A stretch of DNA of 64,000 nt, taken from Octopus vulgaris (lineage: Eukaryota). Location of the stretch: NCBI GenBank assembly GCA_951406725.2, contig OX597816.1:81468001-81532000 (forward strand), in the 5' to 3' direction. The notes under the pieces were generated by a model. That model ran no database searches and was not told the DNA's origin. It saw nothing but the letters and a program-made list of their open reading frames with translations. Made by a program: the position numbers and the translations under genes. The first letter of the stretch is position 1. Each line of letters starts with the position of its first letter. Shown one piece after another: positions 6,812 through 62,000 of the stretch.

Positions 6812-8990
6812 ATGATGTGGGTGATATCTTCAGTTTCAACTCCACAATGTCTACATCAGTTGTTACATTTTACTGCTTTTCCTGCATCTCTGTCCCTTTT
6901 GTGCATCAGGTACTTGGTTGATATTTCCAGTTTCTGGATTGCAAACACATACCCTTCAAAGTGGAAGGTAGTAATCCGGCTATTGGTCCATGATAAATTG
7001 CTTTGATGATCGATGTTACTATCATCGCGGAGCTTTCTACAAACATATCCATGCATAGTCTTCTGCTCATATAGGTTCATCCTTTCATCTGATGTCACGT
7101 TGTGGTAGAGTCGTACGACTTCTTTGGGCATGTATTCTAGATTATCAGACGAAGAGTGTTGCTCAAGGAGCTGCCTTCCAAGTCTTATGATATTATCAGC
7201 CTCATGTATGCAAACTTGGTCAAGGGATGCACTTCGACACTCGGTGGTTAAAAGATGTTGCCGAAGAGATATGCTGCGACATTCAAAGGCATTTTTGATC
7301 GATGTTAAGCCTCTGCCGCCTTGCTTTCGTTTTAGGTAGGGCGGTCTACGCCACTGTTTATGTGGAAATTATGTGTGCTTGTTAGTATTTTTCGAGTTTT
7401 CACATCAATGGCTCCGATCTCATCAAGCAGCTCAAATGTTGGTATGAGTACTGGCACCCCAAACATATTGTGGGTCACTGTTTTATTGAATTCAGAGAGT
7501 TCTGTGGTCCAAATTTTCTTTATTTGACTGTAATATTCTTTAGTGACACGTGTTTCGTTACCGGTGCCATTGTAAGATATATTTTCATCCACCCCTAGAC
7601 AGCTGTAACATTCCTCGTTAGATACAGGGGAAGCAGTCAAATCATTGATAGAAATGTTACTAGTCTGGCTTATAGTTTTTTCCCCTTTTCACAACCATAT
7701 AACAACATTTATCCTGATCAAACTCCAATCCTACATCCTTTGAGAATATTGTAACTAAGTCAAGGCTAAGTTATCCACAAAGAAACAGTGTGTAATTTTG
7801 GTATTTCTGTTTCCTTGTGAACCAGTGAGATATCCTTCAGACTTCCTTAACATGAATGACAAGGGGTTTAGAGAAAGTATAAACACCATCACAGAGAGGC
7901 TGTCTCCTTGGAATATGCCTTTGTGAGACTGTATTCTATCGGTGATAATACAGTCTCACTATGTTTCAATGAAGTCAGGTCAGCTATGGCTTTGACTGTT
8001 CTCTAGAACTTTAGCGAGTTAAAGGGCTTCTAGCATCGATGAGTCAAAGGCTTTCTTGTAGTCTGGCCACATTGAAACTAAGTTCCGCCTATGTTTTCGC
8101 CCGTCTGACATCACAGTTTCCCTTCTTTCAAGCTGCTTGTTCTGTGATATTTTTTTTGGTTTCACAATGGTCCTGGAGGAAGAGGTTTAAATATGCTGTA
8201 TATATCTTATTCATTAAGTTCTTGCATGCAAATGGCTGGTAGTTTTTTTGGCATGTGGGTGGTTCTGCATTTGGGGATCAAGTTTATCTTTGCCAGAGCT
8301 AACCAGTGTGGTATACTACTGTTCTCAATGAAAGCTTCCTCAAACGGATTGATAAGAATATTAACTCCTTGTACCAATATCCAGGAATCAAGTCTGTTCC
8401 AGGTGCTTTTCCATCCTGGAGTTTCTGGATCACAGTTGCAAGAGTTTCACCATCAATGTTGTATATCTTGGATGTAACGCAAAAGCAATAACGTTTTCTA
8501 ATTTCTTCTAACCACTGAGCATCTTCGTTAAATTCTTTCTCTTCACTCTAGATTTTCCTCCGGACGGAGTCTATCTCTTCTCATGAAGGAGCTTCGGTGA
8601 TGTTTACTGCTCCTCCTCTCATGTCTCTATATACTTCTGCCCGGTTGCGGTTAAATTTTATGCTTATTGTTCTTCTCTCGGTTATTCTCTTCGAAGTTTT
8701 TCACTAACAGCTTTTAGCTCCTGCTTGAGAGTAATCAGTTTGCAAGTGAATGTCCTCTTTTTGCTGTCTCCAAACATTATTTCTATCTCCTTCTTAGCTT
8801 TCTATAGGTGGGGCGTAGAGTGATTTGCTTGTCTGCATGCAATAAGCATCATTGTATGACTGATGGTCTTCAGTAAACCAGTTATCTTTTTCTCTGTCTT
8901 CATAACGCATGATAGTACTTTCTTTGTTATTTCGGTTTTGTTTACTTTTTTAATATCATTCATATACTATTTTACAGTTGTAGTAAATAC
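6812..8990 (-). mobile_element. Degenerate non-LTR retrotransposon RT, R4/Dong-like (RLE type)
   Basis: Minus-strand fragments GIFQGDSLSVMVFILSLNPLSFML, THCFFVDNL, YSCLGVDENI, KRKQGGRGL, KTMHGY, FEGYVFAIQKLEISTKYL; many stops/frameshifts. Confidence 0.8.
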
Positions 8991-10069: not shown

Positions 10070-11075
10070 AAAATCTGTTGGGGGCAAGGATGTCACCTTG
10101 CTTGACACCATTCTCTACAGGAATGTGTCCTGCCATGCTACCACTAACAATGACCCAAGTTTCCATCCCATCATGAAATGATTTAATTATTGATACAAAG
10201 TGATCGGACATCCAAGTTTGCCAAGTATTTTCCATAGCAAAGCCCTATTCACAGTATCAAAGGCCTTGGTTATATCAATGAATACCTGGTCAAGATCCAT
10301 ATTCTGCTCATAGTACTTCTCCTGCATCTGTCTTGCTGTGAAAATCATATCCATTGTCCCTCTATCAGATCGGAAACCACATTGAGATTCAGATAGAACA
10401 ACTACAAGACACCCATTCAGGCGGGTAAGAATATTTGCCAGAACTTTGCCAGCAGCTGATAGTAGAGCAATACCTCTGTAATTATCACACATTTTCTGGT
10501 TCCTTCTCCTTTATAGAGAGGAAGAATAATTGTATCCTTCTAGTCCTTAGGCATTGCACCATCCCTCCATATTATACAAATAAGTTCATGAAGGGACATG
10601 TATGATGTAATCATCACCAAATTGCGAGACATCAGCATAAATTCCATCCCTTCTAGGTGCCCTACCATGGTCCAATTTACTTATTCCTGTCATTACCTCA
10701 TCCATTGAGGGTGTGGAATTTAAGGAGCCAATGGTAGGTTTTTATTGCATAGTATCATTCACTGTTTCATTAACAACTGACTCATGGTTCAGGAATTCAG
10801 AGAAGTGTTCAATCCAGCGACCTGTGATTTCTGTTGATTTAGTAAATAGAATAGAAGACTCCTTAGAAAGCAAAGGAGCCAATGCAGAGCTCATAGGTCT
10901 ACAAACTTGCTTCATAAGATGGTAAAGCTTCTTGCTGTCATTTTCCTCAGCAGCAGCCTGAACATCACGAACAAGATCCTCCCACCAAGTGTTCAGCATC
11001 TTCCTGAGAGATCGCTGCAGCAGTGATTTTACACTGCTATAGTGGGCAAGTGCTAGATTTTGCTGCAACAACAAT
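10070..11075 (-). mobile_element. RTE-clade LINE RT fragment, degenerate
   Basis: CDNYRGIALLSAAGKVLA, SESQCGFRSDRGTMDMIFTARQMQEK, FIDITKAFDTVNR, NGVKQGDILAP. Confidence 0.9.
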
Positions 11076-13487: not shown

Positions 13488-14777
13488 CGAGGGGCGTTCA
13501 ATAAGTAATGTCCCTGACCCACTTCCCATTGCAGTAGAGCAACGAAACTTAGCACAGTTATTAGTATTTTTCTACATAGAATCACCCAGAGTTACGCATT
13601 TCTCCCATTGTTTGATGCAGCTCTGGAGACCGTTTTTGTAGAAGACCCCAGCTTGGTCCTCCAACCACGACGTGACTTCAGAAATCAAGGCTGCATCATC
13701 TGTGAAACGCTTTCCCTTCAGAAACAACTTCATGGCTGGGAAGAGGTGAAAATCAGAGGGTTCAAGGTCAGGAGAGTAGGGGAGATGGGGAGGAGTTCAT
13801 AGCCGCACGCCTGTGCTTCTGATCTGGCGACACGCGAGTTGTGGACCGGAGCGTTGTCCTGCAGGAGGAGGATGCCTTTGCTGATCTTGCCCCGACTCTT
13901 GATTTTGATAGCTTCTCTTAATTTCCTCAAAAGTGAAGCATAATAGGCTCCTGTAATTGTGGTACCCTTTGCCGGGAAATCTGCCATCACTACTCCGTCC
14001 TGGTCCCAGAAGACTGTGAGCATGTCCTTGCCAGCGAAGGGCTGCACCCTTGCCTTCTTTGGAGGAGGTGAGTCACGGTGCTTCCACTGCATTGACTGGG
14101 CTTTGGTCTCTGGATCATAGTGATGGACCCAGGTTTCATCCTGTGTAATCAGTCTTTTGAAAAATTTTGACTCATCTTCTTGGCACATCTCCAAATTCAT
14201 CCTCGAGCACTCGACGCGTTCTTGCTTCTGGAAAGGTGTGAGCAACCTGGGAATCCATCTGGCAGACACCTTTTGCATATGCAAATGGTCATGAATGATA
14301 GTTTCCACAGACCCGGTACTAATCTTGACCTGATGGCCTATTTGGCGAATTGTTATGCGTCGATCTTCCAAAATGGCAGCCTCAACTTGACGGACAGATG
14401 CCTCATCAATGGCAGAAGAGGGCGACCAGATCTGGGAGCTGTTTCCACAGAGTTCCGACCATGTTTGAATTCACGATGCCAGCGTTTTACAAAGTCATAT
14501 GATGGGGCATCATCACCATAAGTTACTTTCATTTCATCAAATGTCTCCCGTGGTGTGCGTCCTTTCAAATACAAAAACCGGATCACTGCTCGACACTCAA
14601 CAGGCTCCATTTCACACTTGACTCAGTTCAAACACCTGTAAATCAGAAACCACAATTATCTCAGAGCTGTAATTTGCCACGTAATCTATAGAGATATAAA
14701 TAATTGCACAGACAAAATTTCAGCTAGATCAAACAACTGCAAGTGGGTCAGAGGCATTACTTATTGAACGTCCCTCG
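13488..14777 (-). mobile_element. Full-length mariner (Tc1/mariner, DD34D-type) element, 1290 bp, frameshifted transposase
   Basis: TIRs CGAGGGGCGTTCAATAAGTAATG... / ...CATTACTTATTGAACGTCCCTCG, TA duplications at 13486-87 and 14778-79; transposase motifs PRSGRP, WIPRLL, TQDETW, QDNAPVH, PYSPDLEPSDFHLF in three frames. Confidence 0.97.
13570..14610 (-). pseudogene. Mariner transposase, at least two frameshifts
   Basis: ORFs 14353-14610 and 13730-14371 plus C-terminal frame ...PYSPDLEPSDFHLFPAMKLFLKGKRF...WEKCV. Confidence 0.93.
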
Positions 14778-18757: not shown

Positions 18758-19127
18758 GGAGGCGCAATGGCCCAGTGGTTAGGGCAGCGGACTCGCGGTC
18801 ATAGGATCGCGGTTTCGATTCCCAGACCGGGCGTTGTGAGTGTTTATTGAGCGAAAACACCTAAAGCTCCACGAGGCTCCGGCAGGGGATGGTGGTGATC
18901 CCTGCTGTACTCTTTCACCACAACTTTCTCTCACTCTTACTTCCTGTTTCTGTTGTACCTGTATTTCAAAGGGCCGGCCTTGTCACTCTCTGTGTCACGC
19001 TGAATATCCCCGAGATCTACGTTAAGGGTACACGTGTCTGTGGAGTGCTCAGCCACTTACACGTTAATTTCACGAGCAGGCTGTTCCGTTGATTCGGATC
19101 AACCGGAACCCTCGTCGTCGTAACCGA
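18758..19127 (+). mobile_element. tRNA-derived SINE, well preserved (CpG-rich)
   Basis: Pol III A box TGGCCCAGTGG (18768-18778), B box GGTTTCGATTCC (18811-18822), followed by a non-tRNA body. Confidence 0.85.
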
Positions 19128-20235
19128 TAAAGCAATTAAGGATATGAAGACAAGGAAATTACCTGGCCCATCAGGTTTCACCGCTGAGATGCTTAAAATA
19201 TTGGGCGGTGTGTTTTATGGTCTTGTCTCCCGCATCGTAAATCAGGTAGTTCATGAAGGAGTCATACCCAATGACTGTTGCAGTAGCACAATAGTGAACT
19301 GCTACAAAGGTAACGGTGATGCTTTAGATAGAAATAACTACAGGGGTATTACATTATTGGATCAGGTGATGAAAGTTACAGAGAGGGTCATAGCCCAACT
19401 AATTAGGGAGAGAGTTAGTCTAGATGAGATGCAGTCTGGTTTCGTGCCAGGCAGAAGCACCACTGATGTCATATTTCTGGTACGGCAACTGCAGGAGAAA
19501 TATCTAGCCAAAGATAAACCTCTGTACGTGGCTTTTGTTGATTTGGAGAAAGCCTTTGACAGGGTCCTCCGATCCTTTATCTGGTGGTTAGTTCGGAAAC
19601 TGGTGATAGACGAGTTGTTGGTAAGAGCTGTAGAAGCCCTGTACAGAGATGCTGTCAGTAAAGTGAGGATTGGCAACGAGTATAGTGAAGAATTACGGGT
19701 TCACCAAGGATAAGTCCTCAGCCCCATCTTATTCATTATAGTCCTCCAGGCAATAACGGAGGAATTCAAGACAGGCTGCTCTTGGAGCGCCTCTATGCTG
19801 ATGACCTTACTCTAAAGGACGAGTCACTGCCAGAACTAGAAACGAAGTTTAGAGTGTGGAAGCAAGGTCTAGAATCGAAGGGTCTTAGGGTTAACCTAGC
19901 AAAAACCAAAGTCTTAATAAGTAAGAAGGCTGTCAAATCACAACCTCCTTCAGGTAGATGACCCTGCTCGATCTGTAGAAAAGGCGTAAGTAGAAACTCC
20001 ATACGAATACCAGGTGTAAGCTATGGACACATAAAAGGCGCAGCAATATCAAAAGAATGTTAACCAGGAAGATAGGAAGATAGTTTTTGTGTGTGGCAGA
20101 TGCACAGGGGTAATAAACACTGAAGATGTACAGAAAACAGATTCCATCACATGCCAGGGAGAAAAACTACAAGTAGTTAATAGCTTCTACTACCTAGGCA
20201 ACCAAGACAGTGGTTAAGGATGGTCATTCAAAGGA
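19128..20235 (+). mobile_element. RTE-like LINE RT fragment with an embedded Cys/His finger
   Basis: NYRGITLL, MQSGFVPGRSTTDVIF, FVDLEKAFDRV, VHQG, LYADDL, then PCSICRKGV...CKLWTHKR...FVCGRC, then VNSFYYLG. Confidence 0.9.
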
Positions 20236-21729
20236 TTTAAAAGGAATTATTTTTCACCAGCTCTCTATTTTCTTCCAGTACTGTCTCAACAATGGTGCTA
20301 CTCCGGAACAGTGGAAAACTGCCAGTGTCATTCCTCTGTTCAAAAAGGGCGACCGCACATCACCTGTCAACTATCGCCCAGTCAGTCTCACTAGCTGTAT
20401 TGCAAAACTGATGGAATCGTGTGTCAGAGAAACACTTTGGAACTTCTGGAGCTCACACAGTCTCATCCGACCCTCACAATATGGATTTGTCCCTAACTCC
20501 AACTGCAGTGATCAGCTTGTCGAGTTCCTTGAGGACATTACTCAGATCACTGACAGTGGCTCATGGGTGGATGTTGTCTACCTTGACTTTGCTAAGGCTT
20601 TCAACTCTGTGCCACACAAAAGGCTTATGGTGAAACTCTCTGCAATGGGTGTGAGGGATGACCTTTTTAACTGGTTGAAATCCTTCATTCTCAACCGAAA
20701 GGAAGTAGTCACAGTTCTAGGACAGCATTCTACACCATATGAGATGTCATCGGGTGTACCACAGGGATCTGTCCTTGGTCCCCTCTTGTTTGTGGCATAC
20801 ATTAATGACATAGATGCAAATTTAAAGAATGCCACAGTATTAAAATATGCAGACGACATCAAGCTGTACCTTGAAATCAAGAGGACAGATCCTGTTGTCT
20901 ACAGCTTTTTCCTGCAATCAGACCTGGACACAATGCAGCAATGGATCACAGACTGGCAACTGAAACTGGCTGTGGACAAGTGTACCACCATGCATTTTGG
21001 GAGAAAAAACCCTGCGTCCACATACTCCCTCCACAACACTGATATCAAGAAATCCTTATGCGAGCGTGACCTAGGCATCACTGTCAGCAGTGATTAGCGC
21101 TGGACAAAGCATATCTCTAAAATTGTCAAGAAGTCGAGGGTGTCTTGGCATCAATCAGCAAGACTTTTGTTAGCCGCTCTCCAGCCATCTATTTAAAACT
21201 GTATACAGCTATGGTACGACCACACTTGGAATTCGCATCATCAGTTTGGAACCCCTATCTTGCTCAGAACATTGACCTCCTGGAATCGGTTCAGAGACGT
21301 GCAACCAAACGCATACCCTCCATCAGACACCTACCATATTCTGAGCGCCTTGTTTCCCTGGGCATGGATTCACTGAAGCTCCGGCGTCTGGCGACGGACT
21401 TGGTAAACGCCCACAAAGTTGTCAACCACCTCACCAATAACAACACTGAACACCTTTTTGATCTCCATGTGTCTAACACACGTGGACATGCCTACAAAGT
21501 CAGAAAACAACACAGCTCCCATGACTTTCGGAAACATTTCTTCACGCTCAGAGTTGCTGAAGCATGGAATAAACTGCCTGCATCAGTTGTTGACTGCCAT
21601 GACACTGCATCCTTTAAGGCCCTCATGCTTTCCGAAATCCGTCGAAACTACACCTGATTATATATGCACTTTAGATGACTTGTAGTGCACCTGAGCACTG
21701 TACACAATGTTTATTATTATTATTATTAT
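20236..21729 (+). mobile_element. CR1/L2-group LINE, 5'-truncated, relatively young, with (TTA)n tail
   Basis: WKTASVIPLFKKGDR..NYRPVSLTS, VDVVYLDFAKAF, SGVPQGSVLGPLLF, KYADD, ERDLG, LYTAMVRPHLE, LESVQRRATK, FFTLRVAEAWNKLP; one stop plus one frameshift near 21097-21140. Confidence 0.95.
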
Positions 21730-26200: not shown

Positions 26201-29200
26201 CCAGGGTCGACTTTGCCTTTCATCTTTTCTGGTTGATAAATTAAGTACCAGTTATGCACTGGGGTCGATGTAATTGACTTAAACTCTTTGTCTGTCCTTG
26301 TTTGTCCCCTCTATGTTTAGCCCCTTGTAGGCAATAAAGAAATAAGACAGGGTACACACATACATCAAGCTTCTTGCAGTTTCTATTCTATCACATTCAC
26401 TCACAAGCCTTTGGTCAGCCAAGTGCTATTGACAAAGATATTTCACCAAGTTGCCATGCAGTGGGACTAAACTTGAAACCATGTGGTTGGAAAGCAAGTT
26501 TCTTAAGCACGCTTTATTTCATTTAACTGTTATGAACAGATACCCAATAATCTAGATGTATTATATGCTCTAGACTTGTGCCCTGTCACAAAGAAGCATT
26601 TGTTTTATCTGTTTAGCCTTTCATGGCCAAGTCAACAACTTATTTCCTGGAGAGGTCGTTAAGGCATATGGAAATTATCTACGTCACCTTGTTAGAAATT
26701 CTTACCACTTTCAAAAAAACTTACATTCAAGGAACCTTCACTCTAAGTAGTTTTTAAGTTCTAGTTGCATGATTCATCTGGTGTGTTAGTGAGAATACTG
26801 GTAAATTATTTTATCTTTTACACAGCCTTTATTTTTCTGACATATTTTCTGGGGCTAAACAATGGACAGTAATAATATGGAGAATTTGGAATTCCCTTAT
26901 AATTGTCTTTGACTCTAAGCAAGGATGCAGTCCTGTTAGCCTTGTTGATCTCATTGTTTATACTGACCATTCTTATTTCTCAGTTGAGATTAATCCCCTT
27001 TAAGAAAAACTTTTTAATTCCTACAAATATGCTGTTCTCAGAAATCCTTCCAGCAACATACATGTTAGAGAAGAGTACTTTTATTCAGTATGTATGAAAT
27101 TATTAAATCCTTTTTAGATTCATTGTCAAGTGGTCATAGCTGCTTAGAACTGGATTGAAGTAAGATGATAACCAGCTATGCTCCAACACTCACTAAACTG
27201 GGGATACTTTCTCCTTTAAACTCTTCACTTGGTATGACATTAGTTAAACATTATTTGTTATAAAGAGAAACTAGAATACAAGAAAAACAAAATGAAAATT
27301 TGTTGTTAATAAGTATCCTTAACTTAGTGCTTATGTGATTTACTGGAACATCTTACTCATTAGACTTTATTTATAATAATTACTTTAATCTGAAACAAAA
27401 ACTATTCAGTATCATTGATCAACTATACAAATGCCATTGATCAAAGTATAAACCAGAGAGTAATCAAATTTACAAAAAATTGACTTTGTAAGATATATGA
27501 TTCATGTTGTTACAAATACAATTATAATTAAAAGTACTTGGAAAAGACAGTTAATTTAAGTACTGCAGATAAACCCTTTCATATAATACATTGTGTCTAT
27601 CGGCACTCATGCTACAGTGTATTTGTGTGCCAAGTAATGGTTGTCTGGCTACACATTCAATCAACAGTTAACTTATGATCAAGATATTTGGCTAGTAAAC
27701 ACCAATGTAATTCTTCCTGGAAGAAGTAATGAAGTGGAATTCAAGTGGTTGGGACATAACTAGTGTCCCAATACAGTTTTGGTTCAATAGAGCCAAGATT
27801 ATTCTTAGTGTATCTGTATAGTCAATGGGGAAAAAAGAAAATTTGTGGAACTTTGTGCAAAACAGGCAGGTTTATAATGAGGTAGGACTCACAAGAGGTT
27901 ATTCTCTGAACAGTACAATGATGGTGAGTTTCATTCATAATTATTGTTGATGAATCAAGGATACTCAACAAGGTTGATTCTTTCACCCTCCTTCTCTCTC
28001 AATGAATGAAATGGTTTTGCTTTTTTTTTATTTTAGGTTTCCTACTGCTGTTCTTTGGAGCTGCTGTTTATTCCAACCCTGTAGAACTTACACCGGACAC
28101 TTTTCAATCAAAAGTAGTAAACAGTGATTCGCTTTGGATTGTTATGTTCTATGCACCATGGTATGATCACTTTATTTCATTCACTTATAAGTTTTCTCAC
28201 ATTTAAAACATCAGACAAAAGCATACAGCATTTATTACATTCTACTTCATTACAGTTCAGGCTTTGTAGAAGTTTTTGCCAAAATCACCATCCTTTACAC
28301 TCATAGAAATTATGTCAGTGTGTAACTCATAAATCAAATGGAAATTCTTACCCAAAATGTCAGTTTCTACTTCATCTCACAACTCTTTATTTTTGATGGA
28401 GATGATACTAGTACAGATCATCACTAACTTACAATTATTGTGACTGTCCTCATTTATTTCACAACTCTCAGTTGGGTTTCGGTTCATAGAAATAGACTAA
28501 ATCAACTTTGGAAGCATTTAGGTCTGTAATCCTCACAAATAACATGACTCAAGTAATCTAATCACGTAGACAAACTAAAAAATGTTATTACAGACTCATT
28601 CATCTCATAAAATATATTAAAGATTGAATTATTTCAAGGGCATTTATTTCTGTAATCAAAATGTTGCATCAATTTTATCCATGATCTGGGCATGGTGTCT
28701 AATACTGATTTCAATTTTTGGCAAAAGGCCAGCAATTTCAGGGGAGAGGGTTTGTTCATTTACATCAGCCCCAATGCTCAACTGGTATTTTATCAACCCT
28801 GAAAGGATGAAAGGCAAAGTCAAACCCAACAGCATTCTATTCCATTCTGCTTCATTCAGTTTTAAGACCACTTAAAGTAGTAATGGCTTTGTCTAGTGCT
28901 GTTATCATGCTAGACCCAATCCGAACAATCACGCTAGAAATGCCCCCAAGAACTTGTGTAGTAAACACCTGTGGCACAGGCAGCAATATACTCCTATAAA
29001 AGTTGGTACAGTGAAAGCTTGTTTGTGCAGCAAGCTGTACATAAGAATGTGTTTATTTATTGGACAAGATATAATGTAGTTTTAATTATATACTTTAACA
29101 AAATACAACTAAACTCTTGTATTTTACTTTTTTATTTCATTGCTAATAACTTGGCTTTTAACATCTCAACTGTCAGATATATAATAGTAAAATATTGATT

Positions 29201-32200
29201 TTTTTTTTTTACTATTATAAATATTTTGTTTTACTGTAGTTACATTTGCAGCTGTTCAAAATTCTATTTTTCATGTCATTTGGTATGAGATTATAGCATT
29301 AGTTTTTAGTCTTTTCCCTCATTTAGCATAAACTAAATGAGATTTGTGAAGTATATTTGCCATCTAAATATGGCTAACCACTAAGGGTGGATGTTACTGT
29401 AGCTTGTAGCCCCAGGAGAACATCTCCAGCTGGCTATTGACAAACTTTCTGTGCCCTATTGGTATTTGCAAAGGGAAGCCACCCTTCCCAACCTACATGA
29501 TATGCACAGACCCGGGTTTCTGGTTATTGACCTGTCATCAGGGCACAACAATCACTGGTCTTCAATGCGAAAGGGGTCCCAATGCAAATACATATATCCT
29601 TTTTCCAATGACTTTTCGTCACTGATCTTTAAAAAGTGTAAACAAGCAATAATAAATCTCTGAACAAGGTATAGACAGTAGGTCACATAGGTCGACGATG
29701 GGAAGGGGAGCTTCCCTTTGCAAATACTGATAGGGCACAGAAAGTGTGTCAATAGCCAGCTGGAGATGTTCTCCTGGGGCTACAGTAACATCCACCCTTA
29801 ATGGTTAGCCATATTTAGATGGCAAATATACTTCACACTGTCGCGCAGTTACTGTCTATACCTCGTTCAGAGATTTATTATTAGATGAGATTTCATTTTC
29901 ATTTAAACCTAGTTTTCTTGACATCAACAATGTTTCTTTAACCCATTGCATTTTGGGAGGCATTGCAAACCTTGTAGTGATTCATAGAAATATACTTCTG
30001 TGGTTTCCTGCACCCAGCTCATGGAAGGGTTTGAAACATTGCTATTAAAGTATCTCATAAACTTAATGCACATTTCATATATTAGCTAAGAGATCTTCTA
30101 CATAGCCATTTGACCAGCTAAATGTAACAGCCATATCTCCCCAATTACACTCTGTCTTAAAACAGTGGAGTGTAATTTGACAATTCTTAAGATTCCACTA
30201 TCTTCAAAACAGAAAAGATACATCTGGATAGTCATAACAGGAATATCTCTGACTGTATGACTGCTCAGACAATTCTACTATAATAATCTTTTCTACTATA
30301 AGCACAAGGCTCTGAAAGAATGAATGGCAAAGTCAACCTCAGCAGAATTTGAACTCAGAACATAAAGACGGGTGAAATGCCGCTAAGCATTTTGTGTGGA
30401 GTGCTAACAATTCTGCCAGCTTGCTTACCTTCAAAAGCTACCTTCTCAAGTAATGCAGACTCATAAGGGCTGATTTCTATGGTGTATAAATTCCCCACCT
30501 GAATGGGACACCAGTCCGTCAAAGGATTACCCATTTTTGCCAGCTGAGTGAACTGAAGCAACATGAAATGAAATGTTTTGCTCAAGAACATAATACGTCG
30601 CCTGGTCCAGAATTCAAAATCATAATCTTTTAATCATGAGTCCCAACACCTTAACCACTAAGCCATACACCTCCGCACAATTCTACTATAATAATAATAT
30701 GTTTGTTTTTGGTTAATCTTTTTTTAGGTGTGGACATTGCCAATCCTTTAAACCTGAATTCACTAAAGCTGCTGAAATTTTAAAGGTAAGCACATTTGGC
30801 ATTAGGGAAGGTATCCAGCCATAGAAACTTTACCAAATCAGACTGGAATTTGGTGCAGCTCTCCAGCTTACCTATTCTACTATAACCCATGGGACAGCAG
30901 ACGTTAAATGATGATGATATGTAATGAAAACTAAATTCTTTTTTCAGTTCCCCCTTTTTTACTTAAGTAAAGTTACTGTTTCCCAATATTAACTGCTTTC
31001 TATGCCAGTGTAAATAAGAGATTTGCCACTTGAGCATCATCATCATCATCATCTAAAGCCCATTTTCTATGCTGGCATGAGTGTTTTTGTTAGGATTCAT
31101 GGGTCTGAGGACTGCATTCTATTCCAATGTCTGCTTTGGCATAGTTTCTACAGCTGGATGTCCTTCCTAATGCTGACCACTTACATCTACTGCATGCTTT
31201 TTTGATGACACCAACACCAGTGAGGTTACCATACAGTTCATAAGGCTATGGTCTCCTTCAACTGAGTGGGACTAGAGTAGAATAAAGTAGCTTTAGCTTG
31301 AAGAAAATGGGTTAAAATATGAAAAAAAAAGTGGCGTCGGGATAGAACAGGTTTCTTGCTGTAGAGGAGATACATAGCTACTCACATAAGAGAAGAGTGG
31401 ATAGAAGTAACTGGAATGGAGTTGGAAAGAGATAAAATACAGGTGATGAATAGGCCTCGAGGCATGTGGTGAGTGGAGACAGAAGCAGGAGTGTGTATGG
31501 GTAGAAGCTGTAAAAGTATATGGTGTGAGTGGTTAGAGATGGGGGATGGATGAGGTGGTGAATATAATGAAGAACAGGAGTTGAGTGATTGATGGTAAAT
31601 ACATGGAGGGAAGGTAGAGAAGAGTAAGTGATGACTAAAGATTTGATAAGGTCCAGGGTTGGAAGTAGTGAATGGTGGACAAGATTGGAGAGGTGATCAA
31701 TGATCATATATGATGTGGACAAAGTAGGGAAGATGAGCTAACTTACAGTACAGAAGTGGGTGAAGAGTAGCAGAATAGTAATAATAATACAGTAGACAGT
31801 AAGGATGAGAGAGATGATGTGTATGGATAGGTTGCATGCATGGAGAGAATTAGAGATGTATAGTGATTGAAGAGGAGAGATAATCTAGTAGCACAGAAGA
31901 GTGATCAGTGTAAAATGTGTGTGGTGAGAGGCAATCATTATCATCATCAAACATCCGTTCTCCATGCTGGCATGGGTTGGACAGTTTGACAGAGACTGTT
32001 CAGACTCCAACTGTCTGTTGTGGCATGGTTTCTACAGCTGGATGCTCTTCCTAAAACCAACTACTTTAGAGTGTGCTGGGTATTATATACCACCAGCAAT
32101 ATTAAGACTTAAGGATGGATGACAAGTAAAGTGGCTCCAGGAAGAAAGAGAGATGACTGGTATTACATAGCAAGGTGATGAAATGTTCAGTTCTGTTCTC

Positions 32201-50979: not shown

Positions 50980-51508
50980 TCACGTCAAGAGGCGTTGATC
51001 TGTATTTAATGTGTATTGTAAAGTGACAGGACAAGCAAGCACAGCTTCAGCACGAGCCCCTTCAAGTGTTACACAGTTAAGCTGTGGGACTAAACCCCCA
51101 ATTTCAGAAAGATGGCCACCTACTCTGTCCCCATCATCTATGCTATTACTATCTGTCGAGCCTAAGCCCGTATCAGATAACATTGAGTGTCGTAGAGCAA
51201 AATGTTCAGGATGTAATTCTAATACGGTCTTTGCACCACCAGAACCAATTCTTGTTCCTATACTGCTTCCAGCCATACTATCTTCATTGGTACCAATTTC
51301 AACCTCATTCATCACACTGTTTAACGGCAAATTCCGATGAAGTCGTTTATATTCTTTATCTCGGTCTTTTTCTTTTTGGCGCAGTTCATTATTCTGTTGA
51401 CGAGAGATTTTTCTTCGGATCCTATCCCGACGTCTTTCACGTTCTCTGTAGTTGGGATCAGCTCTCATCATGCGCATCCTTGCCTTGGCCTTCTCCTTTT
51501 CTTTTGCT
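50980..51508 (-). CDS. Minus-strand gene, terminal coding exon
   Basis: TTTTTAG|A GCA AAA...; AKEKEKAKARMRMMRADPNYRERERRRDRIRRKISR...TDQRLLT*. Confidence 0.9.
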
Positions 51509-52220
51509 CTAAAAATAAATTAATTGAATAAATAAATAAAATAAACACAAAAAGTAATTTAATTAATTTTAAATGAACTTGAGAAATAATATTAAACATC
51601 ATAAGTACCCATTTGAAACTGAAAGGAATAAGAGAGTCACTGAAGGGACTCAAACCACATATCTACTGCTTGCCACGCAATGAATCACATTAGCAGTTAC
51701 ACTACAGGGTATAACTGTTACAAAACTAGGTTTTAGCCTTCTAGCTAATGCTTTATATTAGTTGGCTGTAAACCAGTGTTGACTCAAGGCTAACTCCAGC
51801 TTTATAACAAAATTCAGCCCTTAAGACAGTAATATATCAAAATATAGTAAAATCAGAGGGTCACATATCGTAAATCTATCGTGACAAATCTTACAAGGAC
51901 TACTCAGCAGTAACAACTACAAAGAATCCTCAAGATCCTAACACCTTCAACAAGTACAAGAACAGCAACCTTAATGAAGCTGACTCAATGAGGAAACTTC
52001 TATTCTGTCACCCACCCTGCTAATAATAGCAGTCCAATTTCTCTCAAATGACACCATAACATTATGCGTGGCTCTGTGGTAAGTAGCTTGCTTACCAACC
52101 ACATGGTTCTCGGTTCAGTCCCACTGCATGGCACCTTGGGCAAGTGTCTTCTACCATAGTCTCGGGCCAACCAAAGCCTTGTGAGTAGATTTGGTAGATA
52201 GAAACTGAAAGAAGCCTGTC

Positions 52221-52262
<42 letters not shown>

Positions 52263-55200
52263 GTGTGTCCGTGTTTGTTCCCCCACCATCGCTTGACAAC
52301 CAATGCTGGTGTGTTTACATCCCTGTAACTTAGCAGTCTGGCAAAAGGGACTGACAGAAATAGGCTTACAAAGAATAAGTTCTGGGGTCAATTCGTTTGA
52401 CTAAAGGTGGTGCTCCAGCATGGCCACAGTCAGATGACTGGAACAAATAAAAGAATTGAAGAATGTAGTCCAAGACATTCAAAACTACAGATTTTTAGCA
52501 TTCAGGGTTGATGAACCAAAATAACTTCAACAAGGATAAGCACTGTCACGACATTAACCATGGCACCACAGAATAACAACACTATTTCTTGCAACAGAAC
52601 TTCCTTATTGATAAACAAACAAATAGGTCCAAAAAATGAAATCATCACCATCATCATCTAATATACATGTTCCATGCTGGTGTGAGTTGGATAGTTTCAA
52701 GTGGTTTAAGGACTACATCAAGTTCTAGTGTCTGCTTTGGCATGGTTTCTATGGCTGAATGCCCTTTCCAATGCAACCACTTTATAGCATGTACAGAGTG
52801 CTCTCATTTGTGCTACCAGCACTAGTGAAGTCACCATTCAGCTCACATGGCTATGAACCTCATGGAAGTGGAGGTTAGCTTTAAGCTAGGAGATGGATGA
52901 GATTTTAAAGTATAAGCAAAGGGGATAGAGCAGGCTCTTTTTGTAAAGGAGCTACATGACTACTCACGAGTTGAAGAAAGGGGTGAAAATAATCAGGTAA
53001 AGCTGTGATAAAATAAGAATTCATAAACCAGTTACAGTAGAACATACTTGCACTGTCAGATGTTAGAAAGTAAGTAATGCTTCATAGATGAGATTAATAT
53101 AGGGAAAGTAAGCCTCTATATGGTGTCTTGACCTGCCAGAAATAACAAACAAATCACCTTCAAATTACAGCCCATCGTCTAAAAGAAGAAGACAGACAGT
53201 AATGTAGTCCTAGTTATACTATGCTTGAAAAAAAGACAGGTACGGTCACAACTGGAATGCCTTCAATTGTAGTTTTGAAGAATCGGAGCTGAGTGAGAGC
53301 TAAACAACATTAGGATAAATCATTATTATCATTGTTTAATGTCCTCCTTCCATGTTGGCATGGGTTGGATGGCTTGACAGGAGCTGGCCAGGCAGAAGCC
53401 TGCACCATACTTTTATGTCTGTTTTGACATGTTTTTTTAAGCTGGATGCCCTTCCTAACACCAACCACTCTGCAGAGTGGATTGAGTGCTTTGTACGTGG
53501 CACCAGCACAGGTGAGGTCAGTTTTGACATGGTTTTTCCAGATGGATGCCCTTCCAAATGCCAACCACTTACAGTGTGGATTGGATGCTTTTTTAAGTAG
53601 CACCTGCACTGGCAGGGTCACCAAGTAACTTTGCAAGACAAGGAATTTTTGAGAGGGGAGGGGGCATAGGAGGATGTGATCTTGTGCCAGATGATGGAAG
53701 GTTAGAGTGTGACAGAAAGACAGAAACATGTCTTGCTGTAGAGGAGGTACATGGTTATCCAACTAGAGAAAGAGGGGGAGGAGAAAGAGAGGGTTAACAA
53801 GAAAGGGGAGAGAAACAGGTGTGCTGCTGTAAAGGAGATATATGATTACCTAGCAGGAGGGGAGAGCAAGAAAAGAAGAGAGAGTGATCAAGAATGAGGA
53901 CAGAAACAGGTGTGCTGCTGCAGAGGAGATACATGGTTACCTGAGAGAGATGGTGGGAGAAAGAGTTAACAAGAAAAAGGACAGGAATAGGTATGCTGCT
54001 GTAAAGGAGATACATGGTTACCTAGCAAGAGAAGGAGGGAGAGACAGTGATCAAGAATGAGGGCAAAAACAGGAGTGCTGCTGTAGAGGAGATACATGGT
54101 TACCCAGCAAGAGGGAAGAACAAGGAAAGAGAGAACATGCAGATAAATTGCTATTTATAAACAGCTGAAGAAAAATTCATTATCATCATCGTTTTAACAT
54201 CCACTTTTCCATGCTTCATATTATGAAGGAAAAGGTTGTTTTCAACTGAGACCTAACTATAGTTGATGGAATTAACAGATTGTGAGTTACTGAAATTAAC
54301 AAAATAAATATTGCAGAATGAGACAGAAGCAATTCTAAAAGATGAAGTCTTCAGTAACATGACATTGTTAGTAAATAAGAAAATTCTTATAAGCTACTAT
54401 CACTATGACCTGGCGTTGCTGGGTCATAGTGCTAGTGCATTCATATACAGCTGCGTGCGTGCGCACATATACGTGGGTACTGTCCAAATCTCCGACCAAT
54501 CACATACAGCTAGCTGGCATATCAAATTTCGGGCATTTTGATTGGGTTTTGGATAGAAAATTCACAAAAAAGTCACTTCTATTGATTTTTTAATGGCTTT
54601 GCGGGGTGACTGGCGAAATGTAAAGATGTGCACGACCACCCTTGGACGGTTTTGAATGATCATAGAAAGTGTGAGCCTCTAACTGAAAAATTGTGGATTT
54701 GTATAAAGGACACACACACACACAGACATTTTGCCGTTTATATATAGAGAGATTATTGCTATCAACGTTGATAAAAGCACGAATGTTATACTAATTCCCT
54801 ACATCTACATTGTACCTCTAAATAGAAATTGTTTTAAGAGAAGGGAAATAACAATGAGAACATTAAGTTTGAACCACAAAACGTTGCCAACAGAGTGGTC
54901 TACCTTACCTGTACATCGGATTCGCTCTCTGTTCACGTTTCTTGATTTTGTCACGTTCGCGTTTCATCATATCTTTTGATAGCACGTTATTTTCTTCCAT
55001 GGTATCGGCTGGTACTAGTTGCATGCCACCATCACCAACATATACAATTGACATTCCTTTGGTCATAGGGTGGCCACCTCCAACACAAGGATCAATATTT
55101 CTGTAAGGACAATGACAAAATAACAAAATTATTCTTTAAATTGGAACTTAAGAATTTACTGACAATCAAAACCAAAACTTGAATGAAAAATAAGACAATT

Positions 55201-57752
55201 TTTTTCTTTATATATTGTTGTTAGATGTTAGGCACAGGTGTGGCTGTGTGATTAAGAAGCTTACTTCTCAACCATGTAGTCTTGAGTTCAGTCCCATTGT
55301 GCTGCGTTGTGAGCAAACAACTTTTATTATAGCCCCAGGCCAATCAAAACCTTGTGAATGGATTTGGTAGATGGAAACTGAAAGAAGCCTATCTTATATG
55401 TGTGTGTATATATACAGACGTGTGTGTCTATGAGAACCCTTGTCCTTAAATTCACATGATGGTGGTAAATGAGCATCACTGTTACACAAGCAACGTTATT
55501 CACTTCTGTGCTTCTGCAGAAAAACACATCTGGTCATGGGAAATATTAACTAGTTTGCAAACAAGTGAGGGTTGGTGACAAGGATGGCACAGAAAATCTG
55601 CCTCAACAAATTCCATCTGACCAATGCAAGCATAGAAAGGTGGACATATGATGATGATGATGATTGAAACTGAGTAATCTGAATTCAAGCCAAACTTCTA
55701 AAATAGAAATAATGTTTGAAATTTTTATGATAATACTAATTGAATTTGTTTTCAAATTACATATTTTACACTTGATATCTACTTTCTTTTGTTTAAGTTC
55801 AAATCTGATTTTATTAAAAGGTGTTTCAGTCATGATCTACTGCATTTCTATTATGACTATTCTCTTTATAAGAATATGACAAATTCTAAATTATTGCCAG
55901 ATGTTAGACACAGTGGGTGATAGAAGTGACAGAGCACCAGACAAAAAAAGAATACCTTGTGATACTTAGTTACATCTCTTTATATTCTGAATTTAACTTG
56001 CATCCAGGTTGTCTTTGCTTTTCATCCTTTCAGGATTGATGAATCAAATGCACACTTCCTCCAAAATTTGTGGCTTTGTTGATATATTAAATCATCATCA
56101 TCATCATCAATTTTATGTTTGCTTTCTATATTTGGATGAGTTGATATACTTCAGTTCTTATTAGCAGCCACTACCTTCACAAACTGTTCTCAGTCCAAAT
56201 TCTGTTATAGTCAAATTTGCAATCCATCCTTCTGAGCCTCAGTAACATAAACGCAACTCAAGTATTAGGCTAGAATACTTATGGCCTCATGCCAATGCTT
56301 ACAACTATCATTATTAGTATGATGATATGGCAGAGGTAATAAAACATATGACAAAATGTCTGTGGGATTTAGTTTCATCCCTTTACATTCAGAATTCAAA
56401 TCCCACCAGAGTTAAGTTTGCCTTTCATTCTTTGAGGAACAATAAGTACTAGTCAAGTACTGAAGTCAATTTATTTAACAGACCCACCCACAAAATGTGA
56501 GGCTTCGTGCCTATGTAACAAATATGATAAATGTTACTATTGGGATAGTAAAATGATAAAAATGTTAGAGTACTTAACTGGATACCTTATAGAAAAGTTG
56601 AGGGATAGAAATGGCCTTCTAGTACCCAATTGGATGCCTTATAGCAGATCCACCAAACCAATTTTTGCATCATGAACTGGTTTCATGCAAGACAATTTTG
56701 TCATTGACCAGAGGATCATGTGCATAACAAAATACAATAAATACATATATATTGTATAAATAATACATATAAAATGCAAAAACACCCAGAAGATTGCAAT
56801 AGTCAATAAAATAGACATAAAATTTTACAATTTATTATTTCTGTGTAGCCTGGTACCAAATGATCCACAGCCCAGTACTAGCCTGTGGCTTGATAGTTGG
56901 GAACCCCTGCCATACAGAACAGTGGATGGGTAAAAATATTAAAGAGCTTAACTAGATGTCTTGTACTGTTTACTTGCATTTATTTTCTTTCTTAATTCAA
57001 ATCTCATGGAGACTTACTTAGCCTTTCATATACAAAGACCAATTTAAAAGGCAGTTTCATCCCTCAAAATTTAAGTGCATTTGTCAAAGAAATTATTATT
57101 GTTATAGTAATACTGAGTTCAAATTTCACCAAGGTTAACTTTGCCTTTCATTCTTTTGGTGTATTTAGAACTACATTATCCAATGTATCAATTTTTAAGA
57201 CAGTAGAATGTTACCTTACAAAAGTTTGGCTACTATTTCTAGTAAGCCAAGTTAACATATATAGACTCCATTGTTGGCCCATGGATAAGTAAATAGGTCT
57301 TATGACATATATGTCTTCCCAGGGGCAATAGTGGAATAACTGAAATAGCTATATCCAAAAATTAAATCAATGTCATATACTTAGATTGCTACTAGTGCTA
57401 TGGTGTTTGCCACTATAAAATGATTAAGATAAAAAGCATTATGGAAGTGCATTTCATATGACCTACCTCTCTGGAGCAATGGGGTGAGATGAGATGCCAG
57501 AATCCCTTTGTGCTAGAAACGCTTGCAAGGTCTGGGTTTCTAGAATTTCCACCAAATCTTCAGCCTGGATAACTTTATTACCAACTTTGCTATCATCATC
57601 TAACATCAAGTAGCTGGAGTCAATAGTTCCCTTTGAACAGTTGTCCACTTGAGTCAGACGTTTTGACGCGAGGGCAGCACTAAGTAATTTGTTGCCATCA
57701 AGTGAGCTGGTTTCTACAACAGTTTCAGCACCAAGAGTATCAGGAACACAAC
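50980..57752 (-). CDS. Uncharacterised protein with basic 21-aa helical repeats; last three coding exons only (5' end not found)
   Basis: Exons 57752-57467, 55100-54909 and 51508-50980 have polypyrimidine-AG acceptors, GTAGGT/GTAAGG donors and matching phase 2 junctions, giving a stop-free frame of ~335 aa. Confidence 0.88.
52066..52462 (+). mobile_element. tRNA-derived SINE (family also at 55230-55660, 57820-57962, and 60891-61110 on minus)
   Basis: GTGGCTCTGTGGTAAG...GGTTCAGTCCCACTG...CCAAAGCCTTGTGAGT.GATTTGGTAGA..GAAACTGAAAGAAGCC. Confidence 0.8.
53720..54112. repeat. Imperfect tandem array, 5 units of ~80-90 bp
   Basis: Core GAAACAGGTGTGCTGCTGTA.AGGAGATACATGGTTACC recurs near 53723, 53812, 53903, 53985 and 54067, with purine-rich spacers. 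Confidence 0.85.
54432..54751 (-). mobile_element. Non-autonomous Helitron-like element
   Basis: Minus strand begins TCTCTCTATATATAAACGGCAAAATGTCTG (as 5164-5550) and ends with GC-rich GTGCGCACGCACGCAGC...CTAG. Confidence 0.65.
54909..55100 (-). CDS. Minus-strand gene, internal exon (192 nt)
   Basis: CTTACAG|A AAT ATT...; NIDPCVGGGHPMTKGMSIVYVGDGGMQLVPADTMEENNVLSKDMMKRERDKIKKREQRANPMYR; AG|GTAAGG. Confidence 0.9.
57467..57752 (-). CDS. Minus-strand gene, internal exon (286 nt, phase 1 start)
   Basis: TTTTAG|GT TGT GTT...; CVPDTLGAETVVETSS...DSGISSHPIAPER; AG|GTAGGT. Confidence 0.82.
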
Positions 57753-59006
57753 CTAAAATGCAAAACAATTATATTATATTATAATTATTATCAAATGAAT
57801 ACCAAAAATTGCCATCAGTTAGGCACAGGCATGGCCATGCTTATATTGGTGTGCTTTCCAACCACCTGGTTCAGGTTTCAGTCCCACTGCAAGGCACCTT
57901 CAGCTAGTGTCTTCTACTATAGCTGAACAAAGCCTTGGGTGGATTTGGTAGACAGAAACTGAAATTTGTTTTTTCAACGCATGACTGAACAAATGACCCT
58001 GGAATTAAAGGCACACACCACACACACGCAGGACCATATGTATATTGACACTTGTATACTTCATTATTTCTCTGAGACTGCGAAAGCTGGTCTTTACGAA
58101 CAAACAAGAAATGTTCTAAAATGTAAATTTTGAACTTAGCTGTAGTTATAAAATTACATCTCACAACAGTTAAAAACATTTCTTCTTTGGCTTTTGAATT
58201 ATTGCATATATCTTCAAATGCTTTTCATTAAATTAAAATTTTTTTCTTTCTTTCTTTTGCCTTTATTTACAATTTTTTTTTTTTTTTACCAAAAAGGCTT
58301 CTCTTGTGGTTATTAAGTGTATAGTGCCAAGAAAAATAAACCCTGGCCAATATCAGCCAAGAGGAAGGGGCTGAGATGAAAAAAAAAATCATAAATTTTC
58401 AATAACATTTTTCATAAAAAGTCTACCACCACCACCACCACATCACCATGAAGACCTGAGTGGAAAATGAAATTGGAAAAATCCCCATCAAAACGGAGAA
58501 AATTAAACTTATATGGGCATCCTGATCTGAAACTCCACCTCAATTTCTTCTCTTTAACTGCATGATGCGTAAATATATTGATTTTCATTGTTTATCTACA
58601 AATTCAGACATTGAAAGTATATAGAGCAGAAATAATAAAGACACAAAAAGGTTACAATATTTCATTTTAATGGTTGTCAAACCATTTCTTGAAGGTAAAA
58701 ATATCTCAGTAGATAATGTTCCAAATTTTGTTTTTTATCTCCTGCATAAAAAGTGATAATATATAGTTGTGAAGGTGAATAATACTATTTATCTGGTTTT
58801 AAGTTATATCAACCATTCAACCAGCATGGTTAAACAGTAAATAAAATATTATTTTAAAAATACATAATCCAAGTATATTTATCCTAGTAATCCTAATAAT
58901 GTATTTGTATTTATGTATAGAAAATTGTATATGTTCATTTTTTCCAATGAGAGGTATTTTTAATTAAGTTTTAAATTTTAATATCTGGAATATTACCCCT
59001 AACAGC

Positions 59007-62000
59007 ATGGAAAAGAAAATGCATACATGTGGTTCACTGAAATGCAAAGAGCAACAAGAAGCAGACAGGCAGGAAACAGCCAAGTGGTGCAGATGTATTA
59101 CAGATTTTATAATACCACAACCACCATCCACACCAATGTCCAGTTCTGCAACAAATAACCAAGAAGCAAGAAACAATACTCATGGTGATGATGCAGTGAC
59201 ATGTGAATTGCAAGAACAAGGAAGAGTTACTTTGAATGTAGAGAGAAATACAAGTGCATCCTTTCCAAATCAACCCAGTTCCAGTACTATTTCTAGCTCC
59301 ATTGTTCCAGTATCTGTACTACCTGTAGTTGCAACGTCTGAGGACATAGCTTCATCTAGTGACAGGGAATCAGATATTATTTCAAGCATAAATGACTTGG
59401 TTTCTGAAGCACGTCTGAATCTACACAAGAAAATGAAAGATCAACTACTGGATTCTTCCAATATCAATCACAAGCAATTCTGAAACAGTTTTTTTGTTGA
59501 ACATCTATTTCAGCCACTTGATGATCTACCATTTCATGCTCATCTGTATGAGAGGAAAATTACGAATGGTTCAATCCTAAGAAAATGGCTAACATATAAC
59601 AAAGAAAATATATACTTATAATGTTCATACTGCATAGCCTTTGAGTCTTCCAACACTTGTAATCTTCACCCTTTGTATGTGGTTTTAGTGACTACAGTCA
59701 TATTAGCCAGAGCTTGGCTTTACACAAATCAACAACAACACATGTTAGAAATGCTCAGCAATATATCAGTGTGGTTAATGATGGCACCATAGAAAATCTT
59801 TTGGCAGCATCATTAATTAAAAGGAAAGAAGTATTGAAGCAGAGAAGTATTGTCATGAGGATTATAGACATCATAAAGATGTTAAACAAGCAAACACTTC
59901 CTTTTTGAGGTCACAGAAACAAATCAGCCTACACTCTGGATAATGAGGTTCTGAATCATGGCAATTTTTTAGCTACAGTGAAGTTGATGGCAAAATATGA
60001 TACCATTATGGCAGTTCACGTTTCTGCAGTGCAAAATAAGTCCAAACAAAGACTCAAATGATTAGAACCACAAGGAAAGGCTTGAAGTAATGGCCATGGT
60101 GGACTTGTTACATACCTGAGTAAAACAACTATCAATATATTAATCCAAATTATGAAGAATATGATACAAGAAAGAATTGGTCATGAAGTTTTCCCAAGCA
60201 ATATATTATTCTATTCAAGTTGATTCAACAAGATAATTCATCCATCAATCAGTTTAGCATTATTATTCGGTATGTGCTTAAAGGTGTTATCAGCAAGTGA
60301 CTACTTTCAGTTATGCCAAGTAATGATGGTACTGGACAGGGACTTTTTGACCTATTGACTGAAATGTTATGGCATCTTAGAATTGACCCCAAAAAATGTT
60401 TATCTGATACTACAGATGGCACTGCAAGCTACCATGGGCAGCATAATGGTTTACAAAGTAAAATTGCTGCTGTGGCAGATCAACATGTTCATATATGATG
60501 CTGTGCCCATGTCTTGAATTTGGTGATAACTGAGACAACAAAATGTTGTGTACCTAAAGTTTCTTTTTTCAATTTGCTCCAGAATTTAGCAACTTTTGTG
60601 AAAATATCATATAAGAGAATGGCTGTATGGATAGAAGTTGTTGGAAAATATCTAGGACAAGAAAAAATGAAACAACTGAAGCTAATTGGTGAGACCAGAT
60701 GGACAAGAAAATCCAACACAGCAACAACTATATTGGAACGTTTTGATGATGCCAATGTCAGTACTTTTGTAAATCTATTGACATGCTTATCAATGATACA
60801 AGATTCAGACTAGTTTGATGCCAAAACAAAACATGAATATTTTACTTCGAAGTCTTCTAAAGTTTGAAACCATATTGACAGCAATTACATATCATCATCA
60901 CCCCTCTCTCTCTCTCGGAGAGGCACAAGCACCTACACACATATATACACACACGGCAGTAACTTCCACCTACCAAATTCAATCACAAAGCTTTGGTTGG
61001 CCTGGGACTATAGCAGAAGACACTTGCCCAAAGTGCCATGCAGTGGGACTGAACCCAAAACCATGTAGCTGGGAAGCAAGCTTCAGCCACACAGCCATGC
61101 CCGCACCTACAGACATACTTGTATATATTTGAAACTATAGCCCTGTTATCAAGTTATCTACAGACAAGTGGGTTAGATATGTTAACTGCATGGGGTTTAG
61201 TAGATTCAGCTACAACAAAGTTGAAGGAACAGACAAGAACATTTGATACTGTTCACAGCAAGGCTTTGGAATTTCACAGATGAATATGGATGAAAATCAA
61301 ACATTGGAAATTGACGCTTGGGAAACAGTGTTGCCAGTTAAAAGGCAGAGGAAGAAGAAAAGAATGGCAGATGAGCTGGTTAATGACAAAGAAAGTTTCT
61401 CAGATTCTCTAGCTGATTTTTTGAGTAAATGTGTTAAACCTAATAATGGATTGCATTATCAAGTCACTAGAATCAAAATTTGTACAGCACAAACAGTTGT
61501 ATGAAGATTTATCCTGCTTGAATCCAGCTAAGTTTAAAACTATCACAGAGAAGGGCCTTGAAGTTGAAGCACTAGAAGGTATTATTAAGTTGTTTCCACA
61601 AATCAGCAAAGATCAAATAATATTGGAATTGTCTTCTTTTGCTTCAAATTTTGATTTATTAAAACTATTGTTTAACAATGGTGAGAATATGGGTTCCAGT
61701 TGCAACAACTGTAAAATTTGCAGTACTTGCCCACTGTGTATACTAAAAATTCTGGTATCCAACAGACTTCATGACAAGGCATATAATAACCTTTATAAAC
61801 TTTATAAAATCATCTGCACACTATCAGTTACCTAAGTCCAATGTAAGAGTACATTTTCAAAGCTAAAGATCATAAAGACAAAGATAAGAAGTTCACTGTC
61901 TGAGGAGAACTTGGAAGCATACAAGTTGCTAGCCACTGAAAATGAATTGTAAGATGAATTGGATTCAGAAGCAATTATTAATACATTCACACAATCATTT

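Follow-up and report, generated by a model that had tools for sequence, protein, structure and literature searches.

The insertion at 29334-29893 of the window (the whole 64,000-nucleotide, or 64-kb, stretch of Octopus vulgaris DNA that was analysed) was one copy of an abundant Octopus repeat of about 354 nt with Penelope-type anatomy, which an autonomous Penelope-like element (PLE) had probably mobilised in trans. On the best reading it is a mini-element related to Penelope, non-autonomous and similar in type to the non-LTR retrozymes, for which RNA of more than one unit served as template at both nicks. Systems of this kind are already known from other animals. A sequence-only reading of the same DNA had already called the insertion non-autonomous and Penelope-like. 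This was borne out by the inverted and direct arms, the one-sided tail and the lack of an ORF for reverse transcriptase (RT) or GIY-YIG. The features of the insertion were as follows.

29334..29345, plus strand: left copy of the target-site duplication (TSD), 12 bp, or 11 bp (29335-29345) when the shared T at 29882 is assigned to the element
29345..29680, minus strand: inverted arm, 336 nt of the unit; its outer end is the family's preferred end and the putative RT start site 1
29457..29596, minus strand: long imperfect hairpin enclosing the hammerhead, with arms 29596-29577 and 29476-29457, from an inverted repeat and a predicted fold
29497..29555, minus strand: minimal type I hammerhead motif, decayed copy, with an interrupted stem I, core CUGAUGA (29541-29535), short stem II and GAAA (29520-29517)
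29509..29517, minus strand: palindromic stem III (29517-29510) and predicted cleavage nucleotide C17 (29509)
29679..29693, no strand assigned: head-to-head junction of the arms, inside a 6-nt direct repeat; the two letters 29681-29682 match neither arm
29683..29837, plus strand: direct arm, 5'-truncated, unit positions 181-336, from alignment to the unit
29838..29882, plus strand: 45-nt tail, made of the 12-nt linker (29838-29849) and the first 33 nt of the next unit
29882..29893, plus strand: right copy of the TSD, with a single A/G difference at 29884

Anatomy of the insertion and its target site

The order on the plus strand was the 12-bp repeat (29334-29345), the inverted arm (29345-29680), two letters, the direct arm (29683-29837), the linker, 29850-29882 and the second repeat (29882-29893). 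The arms were compared in inverted orientation. 29345-29490 was identical to 29837-29699 at 133 of 146 positions (91%), and 29648-29680 matched 29882-29850 at 32 of 33. 29683-29698 was likewise alignable to the unit, over a 6-nt gap. These alignments agreed with the earlier description of a near-full minus-strand unit (29680 to 29345) joined to a plus-strand partial copy (29683 to 29882). The 12-nt linker, followed by a return into the unit start, was also found where it had been placed, and a small hairpin was predicted over it (29837-29849). The 45-nt tail was present at one end only, following the repeat end. Both outer ends were 3' ends in the RNA sense, 45 nt apart. The putative RT start site 1 came after an AC-rich stretch lying at the base of a small hairpin predicted there, and we infer that the outer end of the tail at 29882 was RT start site 2. 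The 7-mer GAGATTT stood both in the tail (29872-29878) and in the TSD (29887-29893), probably by chance in AT-rich DNA.

The arms differed at 9 of 182 aligned positions, and five of these mismatches were of the CpG-decay type. Each arm also had a private gap (inverted arm, 6 nt; direct arm, 7 nt). The letters missing from either arm were present in the loose ends of other copies, in contigs of sequencing runs. This meant that the family unit was about 354 nt. The unit described earlier was therefore present, and its size of about 348 nt was corrected. Two minority letters were common to both arms (29482/29707 and 29674/29856), which pointed to one source lineage. The inverted arm ran across the predicted cleavage site and lacked the last 12 nt of a full turn; the direct arm began 8 nt downstream of the predicted hammerhead cut. 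Searches with blastn and nhmmer gave no further copy of the unit in the 64-kb window.

About 180 nt were copied twice, which indicated that two cDNAs had been made. This bears on a possible origin as a SINE-like or LINE-dependent element that was inverted by twin priming, as in L1. The TSD, the 5' inversion and the small size would speak for it. Twin priming on one RNA yields non-overlapping arms. Here, however, about 150 nt plus 33 nt were copied twice, neither end had a poly(A) or simple-repeat tail, a hammerhead was present, and ARAGORN found no tRNA gene in the window. Such an origin was very improbable. Long inverted repeats with a TSD are also expected of a MITE or foldback DNA transposon, with the inverted arms as its TIRs. 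However, the arms were offset by the 45-nt one-sided tail, and arm lengths and centres varied between copies. This reading was largely refuted and its probability was close to negligible.

The flanking repeats (29334-29345 and 29882-29893) were identical at 11 of 12 positions, and the match ended at both edges. The chance of 11/12 for random pairs of flank 12-mers was 1.85e-5, or 4.6e-4 when 25 boundary registers were allowed. A 979-nt contig of sequencing run X13 (organism E, record 9) aligned to 29120-29324 and then to 29885-30067. It had 13 letters between the flanks, compared to 12 expected for one copy of the TSD. This related organism thus carried the empty site, with space for a single repeat, which showed that the TSD was real. 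The 12-bp TSD claimed at first was confirmed by the comparison in a relative that had been proposed for it. In run X1 (organism A), filled junctions were found on both sides without differences, but X1 may be the source of the window itself, so these junctions were not independent. Run X9 (organism D) had a filled junction at the left side only, among the pieces listed. The flanks in organism E had 14 substitutions in about 388 letters. The insertion was likely later than the split from organism E, or polymorphic at that split.

The target was AT-rich at this locus. When the TSD was read as 11 bp, it was self-complementary at 8 of 11 positions, with ATTT before both nicks, at this one locus. 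In other copies, the plurality flank letters at 29345 gave a run of T followed by a run of A across about 12 positions, which resembled a palindromic A/T target. The agreement of this flank consensus was 0.48 in the DNA runs, which may share loci. The consensus was a weak A/T string that differed from the target of this locus.

Hammerhead motif and coding content

The hammerhead core reported for the insertion was recovered on the minus strand (CUGAUGA from 29541, GAAA from 29520), decayed in this copy. The motif had CUGANGA and GAAA boxes, an NUH triplet and a palindromic stem III, with a predicted cut after 29509. A descriptor for minimal hammerheads matched nowhere else in the 64 kb, on either strand. 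Stem III gave −15.1 kcal/mol as a self-dimer and 0 as a monomer, so it would be predicted to form only as a dimer. A9 was followed by an unpaired C. Stem II was a 3-bp hairpin here, with A before GAAA, as in another copy, and the G10.1-C11.1 pair was absent here. Stem I had five of its first six pairs, with the first pair mismatched and two pairs G-U.

The letters of other copies were considered at the same positions. The letter at 29542 (97% of X1 depth) restored the first stem I pair. The letter at 29508 also restored it, with 60% in X1, 86% in X9 and 36% in X13, where it was the minority. 29547/29503 read C:G in other copies, and 29497 restored the distal pair. No core change was found among the 40 variants listed for other copies. 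Judged by these letters, stem I was better paired in the family than here. The differences between family and copy were largely CpG decay in this copy, which showed a better-formed family motif and not compensatory selection. The ribozyme of this copy is likely dead.

Rfam gave no match at the gathering score, and its four weak matches at E<=10, at chance level, included no hammerhead. The folding of the unit was compared with that of shuffles and gave z −1.21, with 14 of 100 shuffles as stable, for this decayed copy. The hammerhead core pattern had one match in viral contigs, in a context without likeness to the unit, and it was taken as chance. Metagenome contigs gave 0 matches to the pattern.

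The longest open frames in the six frames had 26-86 codons, and the earlier view that no credible ORF was present was upheld with a longest frame of 86 codons. The 42-codon frame at 29555-29680 (minus strand) matched no Pfam family and no PLE protein. As a candidate ORF relic, it had three weak matches (E 5e-6 to 1e-3), all to unrelated repeat-domain proteins, and it was rejected. Four PLE RT/GIY-YIG motif patterns had no match in the 64-kb window. No ORF with RT plus GIY-YIG, as in an autonomous PLE, was present at the element. An ATG within the unit end opened a frame through the tail (29819-29882, plus strand), and its A was changed in 43% of X1 depth. PLE ORF starts have been described as lying inside the pLTRs (PMC3846280).

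Copies of the family in sequencing runs

Contigs of 4 of the 24 listed sequencing runs were aligned to 29120-30110 at 80% likeness. The numbers of aligned contigs were 7067 (X1), 2616 (X9), 2259 (X13) and 672 (X18), and most were less than 99% alike. The abundance in all four runs, together with the empty site, supported the earlier claim of a mobile family. The summed contig depth was not taken as a copy number. A firmer lower bound on copies than depth was given by contigs that left the element at 29345 into unrelated AT-rich letters (47 in X1, 34 in X9 and 9 in X18). A fixed end at 29882 was not among the loose ends listed for other copies. In contrast to the earlier suggestion of permuted ends, the ends did not look freely permuted: many copies ended at 29345, and the direct arm ended 45 nt further.

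Other copies also gave the course of the unit. The linker was crossed in X13 (record 15), X9 (record 30) and X18 (record 23), and letters at 29838 and 29844 were variant in 96 and 113 contigs of X1. The unit start was joined to the middle in X18 (record 22), and the middle ran through the hammerhead to the end in X9 (record 28) and X13 (record 13). A joint from 29679 to 29346 with 14 letters between was a diverged wrap-around. The cover over the unit middle was continuous in other copies. From these overlapping short contigs, the loop appears to close at about 354 nt without room for an ORF.

This was set against the reading of the insertion as a 5'-truncated stub of an autonomous PLE, consisting of the pLTR only, in which a single template jump or deletion had produced the short loop at this locus alone. 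Most PLE copies have been described as truncated stubs, often with opposite-strand arms (PMC4209133), and no listed contig covered a whole second unit. However, the joins from tail through middle and hammerhead to end were found in other copies, including those of X13, where the site was empty. With these joins and the continuous cover, the common form could not accommodate a 2.5-kb ORF. A stub was highly unlikely.

Among the joints listed, at least 12 same-strand joints led from the inverted to the direct arm, at 1.2-2.2 times flank depth. The inverted arms of the listed joints were 25-285 nt and the direct arms were 19-194 nt. The head-to-head joints had short sides (21-43 letters where given), and the joint from 29597 to 29726 may be an artefact of an internal repeat. 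Most joints marked as opposite strand were taken to reflect swapped mapping to the reference's two arms and were disregarded. Read cautiously, these joints suggest that copies of the family were commonly inserted head-to-head, with inner truncation of variable extent. A direct arm that always stops at the ribozyme cut was rejected, because the arm of another copy crossed the cut (joint 29596 to 29689).

The copies in organism E favoured letters other than those in organisms A and D at 29376, 29380, 29406 and 29812. The copies suggest lineage-specific subfamilies, with activity in more than one octopus lineage. Contigs of X18, a run only guessed to be RNA, covered the element and did not cover the flanks beyond a T-run, and their profile tracked that of the DNA runs. 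These contigs cannot show strand, ends or circles, and nothing on expression was inferred from them. No RNA run was among the sequencing runs listed as carrying the element.

Proposed mobilisation and comparison with known systems

In the proposed mechanism, transcription of a partial-tandem source copy would give an RNA exceeding one unit in length. Both strands would be nicked, 11-12 nt apart, by a PLE RT/GIY-YIG protein that is probably dimeric. Each 3' end would then prime cDNA synthesis at an internal site of the RNA, one at the unit end (29345) and the other 45 nt further (29882). Both cDNAs would stop early and be joined head-to-head, the target would be duplicated by gap filling, and the inserted copy would decay afterwards, mainly at CpG.

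The locus fits the behaviour reported for an anole PLE, the one PLE tested in vitro (PMC11167929). At AT-rich ATT sites its protein, a predicted dimer, nicks each of the two strands and extends it. In vitro, RT starts at two internal sites bracketing the tail, and insertion takes place without need for hammerhead cleavage. An inverted 5'-truncated copy with a one-sided tail of 30-40 bp is described as the standard PLE structure (PMC8557442, PMC3846280), and PLE TSDs are given as 8-10 bp (PMC3846280). In O. vulgaris, 190 PLE families are reported to account for 6.83% of the genome (PMC13282606), and Penelope is reported as expanded in coleoids (PMC8967140). Several points stood against the Penelope reading. 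The search of the window gave no autonomous partner, and the listed loose ends included no fixed end at 29882. The tail was 45 nt instead of the usual 30-40, the closure of stem II was atypical, the ATTT symmetry was seen at one locus, and the flank consensus of other copies was a different A/T string. The evidence for the family came from overlapping short contigs, and the head-to-head joints had short sides.

The template must have been longer than one unit, and a linear partial tandem (tail-middle-hammerhead-end-tail) suffices. A circular RNA template is possible and not required. A tandem or circular template had been claimed at first. The part on length was retained, with the wrap-around also in other copies, but a linear partial tandem explained the overrun equally well. 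A circle belongs to the classical non-LTR retrozyme cycle, in which tandem arrays would be transcribed, cut by the hammerhead as dimers and ligated to a circle of about 354 nt, which the PLE enzyme would copy. The integration step is the same as in the mechanism above, and the template differs. This cycle would agree with the closed unit, which is similar in size to mussel retrozymes of about 350-390 bp that make circles (PMC7229834), with the distances of 12 nt and 8 nt at the inner arm ends, and with the better paired stem I in the family. However, tandem runs of two or more full units were not seen. End-to-start joins occurred in many copies, in contigs too short to show arrays, and this locus had one hammerhead. 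The unit folded no better than shuffles, though this copy was decayed, and one direct arm extended upstream across the cut site. Moreover, cleavage by minimal PLE hammerheads is reported to be poor in vitro (PMC4209133), the anole PLE did not depend on cleavage (PMC11167929), and only 1 of 9 Xenopus retrozyme dimers cleaved (10.64898/2026.07.22.740005). We regarded this cycle as possible but unlikely.

A further model was improbable. In this model, the element would be a minimal PLE-type hammerhead retrozyme, and its palindromic stem III dimer would give one template to each subunit of the dimeric PLE enzyme at a symmetric staggered cut. If true, it would explain the head-to-head landing of Penelope with a one-sided tail, and it would be readable from one genome via many copies.

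The Penelope-type element, probably mobilised in trans, was compared with known systems. It shared head-to-head arms, a tail at one end, a TSD of 8-12 bp, an AT-rich target, a hammerhead near the ends and variable 5' truncation with endonuclease-bearing PLEs as described for Penelope/Poseidon and Neptune (PMC8557442, PMC3846280, PMC11167929). It differed in having no RT/GIY-YIG ORF, a 45-nt tail and about 140 nt between tail and hammerhead, compared to a loop of about 2.5-3 kb in those elements. Metazoan non-LTR retrozymes (PMC7229834; 10.64898/2026.07.22.740005) were similar in the unit of about 350 nt without a protein gene, the type I hammerhead, GC below 50%, a long TSD and a likely PLE partner, and the size was that of a Mytilus family. 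The octopus unit had the size and content given for retrozymes (a unit of 170-400 nt, no protein gene, type I hammerhead). In contrast, retrozymes are described as head-to-tail arrays with two hammerheads, whereas the octopus element was a dispersed inverted insertion. Its ribozyme motif was of the minimal PLE type, unlike that of metazoan non-LTR retrozymes.

Minimal PLE hammerheads (min-HHR; PMC4209133) had in common with the octopus motif the conserved boxes, a palindromic stem III needing a dimer and an unpaired nucleotide after A9. The octopus motif differed in A instead of C11.1 before GAAA and in a stem II of 3 bp, while those reported from metazoans are longer. Non-autonomous Chlamys PLEs of Chlamydomonas such as MRC1 (PMC8557442) are likewise non-autonomous PLE derivatives that form pLTRs. 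They are green algal, and similarity to an autonomous family was shown there.

Non-LTR retrozymes have been described from corals, mussels and salamanders (PMC7229834). They have been argued to be non-autonomous PLE derivatives in a preprint that sampled 31 vertebrates, three insects and a coral (10.64898/2026.07.22.740005), and a curation guide mentions them as possibly PLE-dependent (PMC8969392). No published description of this octopus family was found among the papers listed from the hammerhead, Penelope and cephalopod literature, which included few subscription papers, and the family may already be an unnamed consensus. The main text of the O. vulgaris annotation paper did not contain 'ribozyme' or 'hammerhead' (PMC13282606). 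The suggestion of a possibly undescribed mobile family thus stood for the family, on which no paper was found, but not for its kind, which is known from other animals. The insertion provides a cephalopod example, verified by an empty site, for the claim that animal retrozymes are non-autonomous Penelope derivatives. A 354-nt element integrating with full PLE anatomy would bound the cis-signals needed by the PLE enzyme, and its many copies offer a natural data set for asking how inverted pLTRs and tails arise. In genome annotation, insertions of this sort can easily pass for MITEs.

The window was AT-rich, with GC of 0.30-0.44 in 2-kb bins. Three exons of a conserved cephalopod gene similar to LOC106876670 were located on the minus strand (50983-51516, 54908-55111 and 57466-57750). 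The exon at 50983-51519 (minus strand) was 99% identical over 179 aa to the Octopus bimaculoides LOC106876670 protein, which identified the window as Octopus. This gene was uncharacterised, with a charged arginine-rich C-terminus and no Pfam domain. The element was 21 kb beyond its last coding exon, and no evidence placed it inside a gene. Two broken frames at 6856-7688 (minus strand) and 58968-61835 (plus strand) had no Pfam match; they resemble a retroelement of the R4/Dong type and a transposase of the hAT type. The window also contained three RT fragments of the LINE type (PF00078), at 10187-10510 (minus strand), 19093-19713 (plus strand) and 20198-21097 (plus strand), and part of a mariner-type transposase (PF01359), at 13730-14470 (minus strand). 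Self-BLAST detected dispersed repeats flanking the element at 28756-28860, 30314-30424, 30495-30679 and 31035-31250, and the family at 30314 presumably resembles an octopus SINE.
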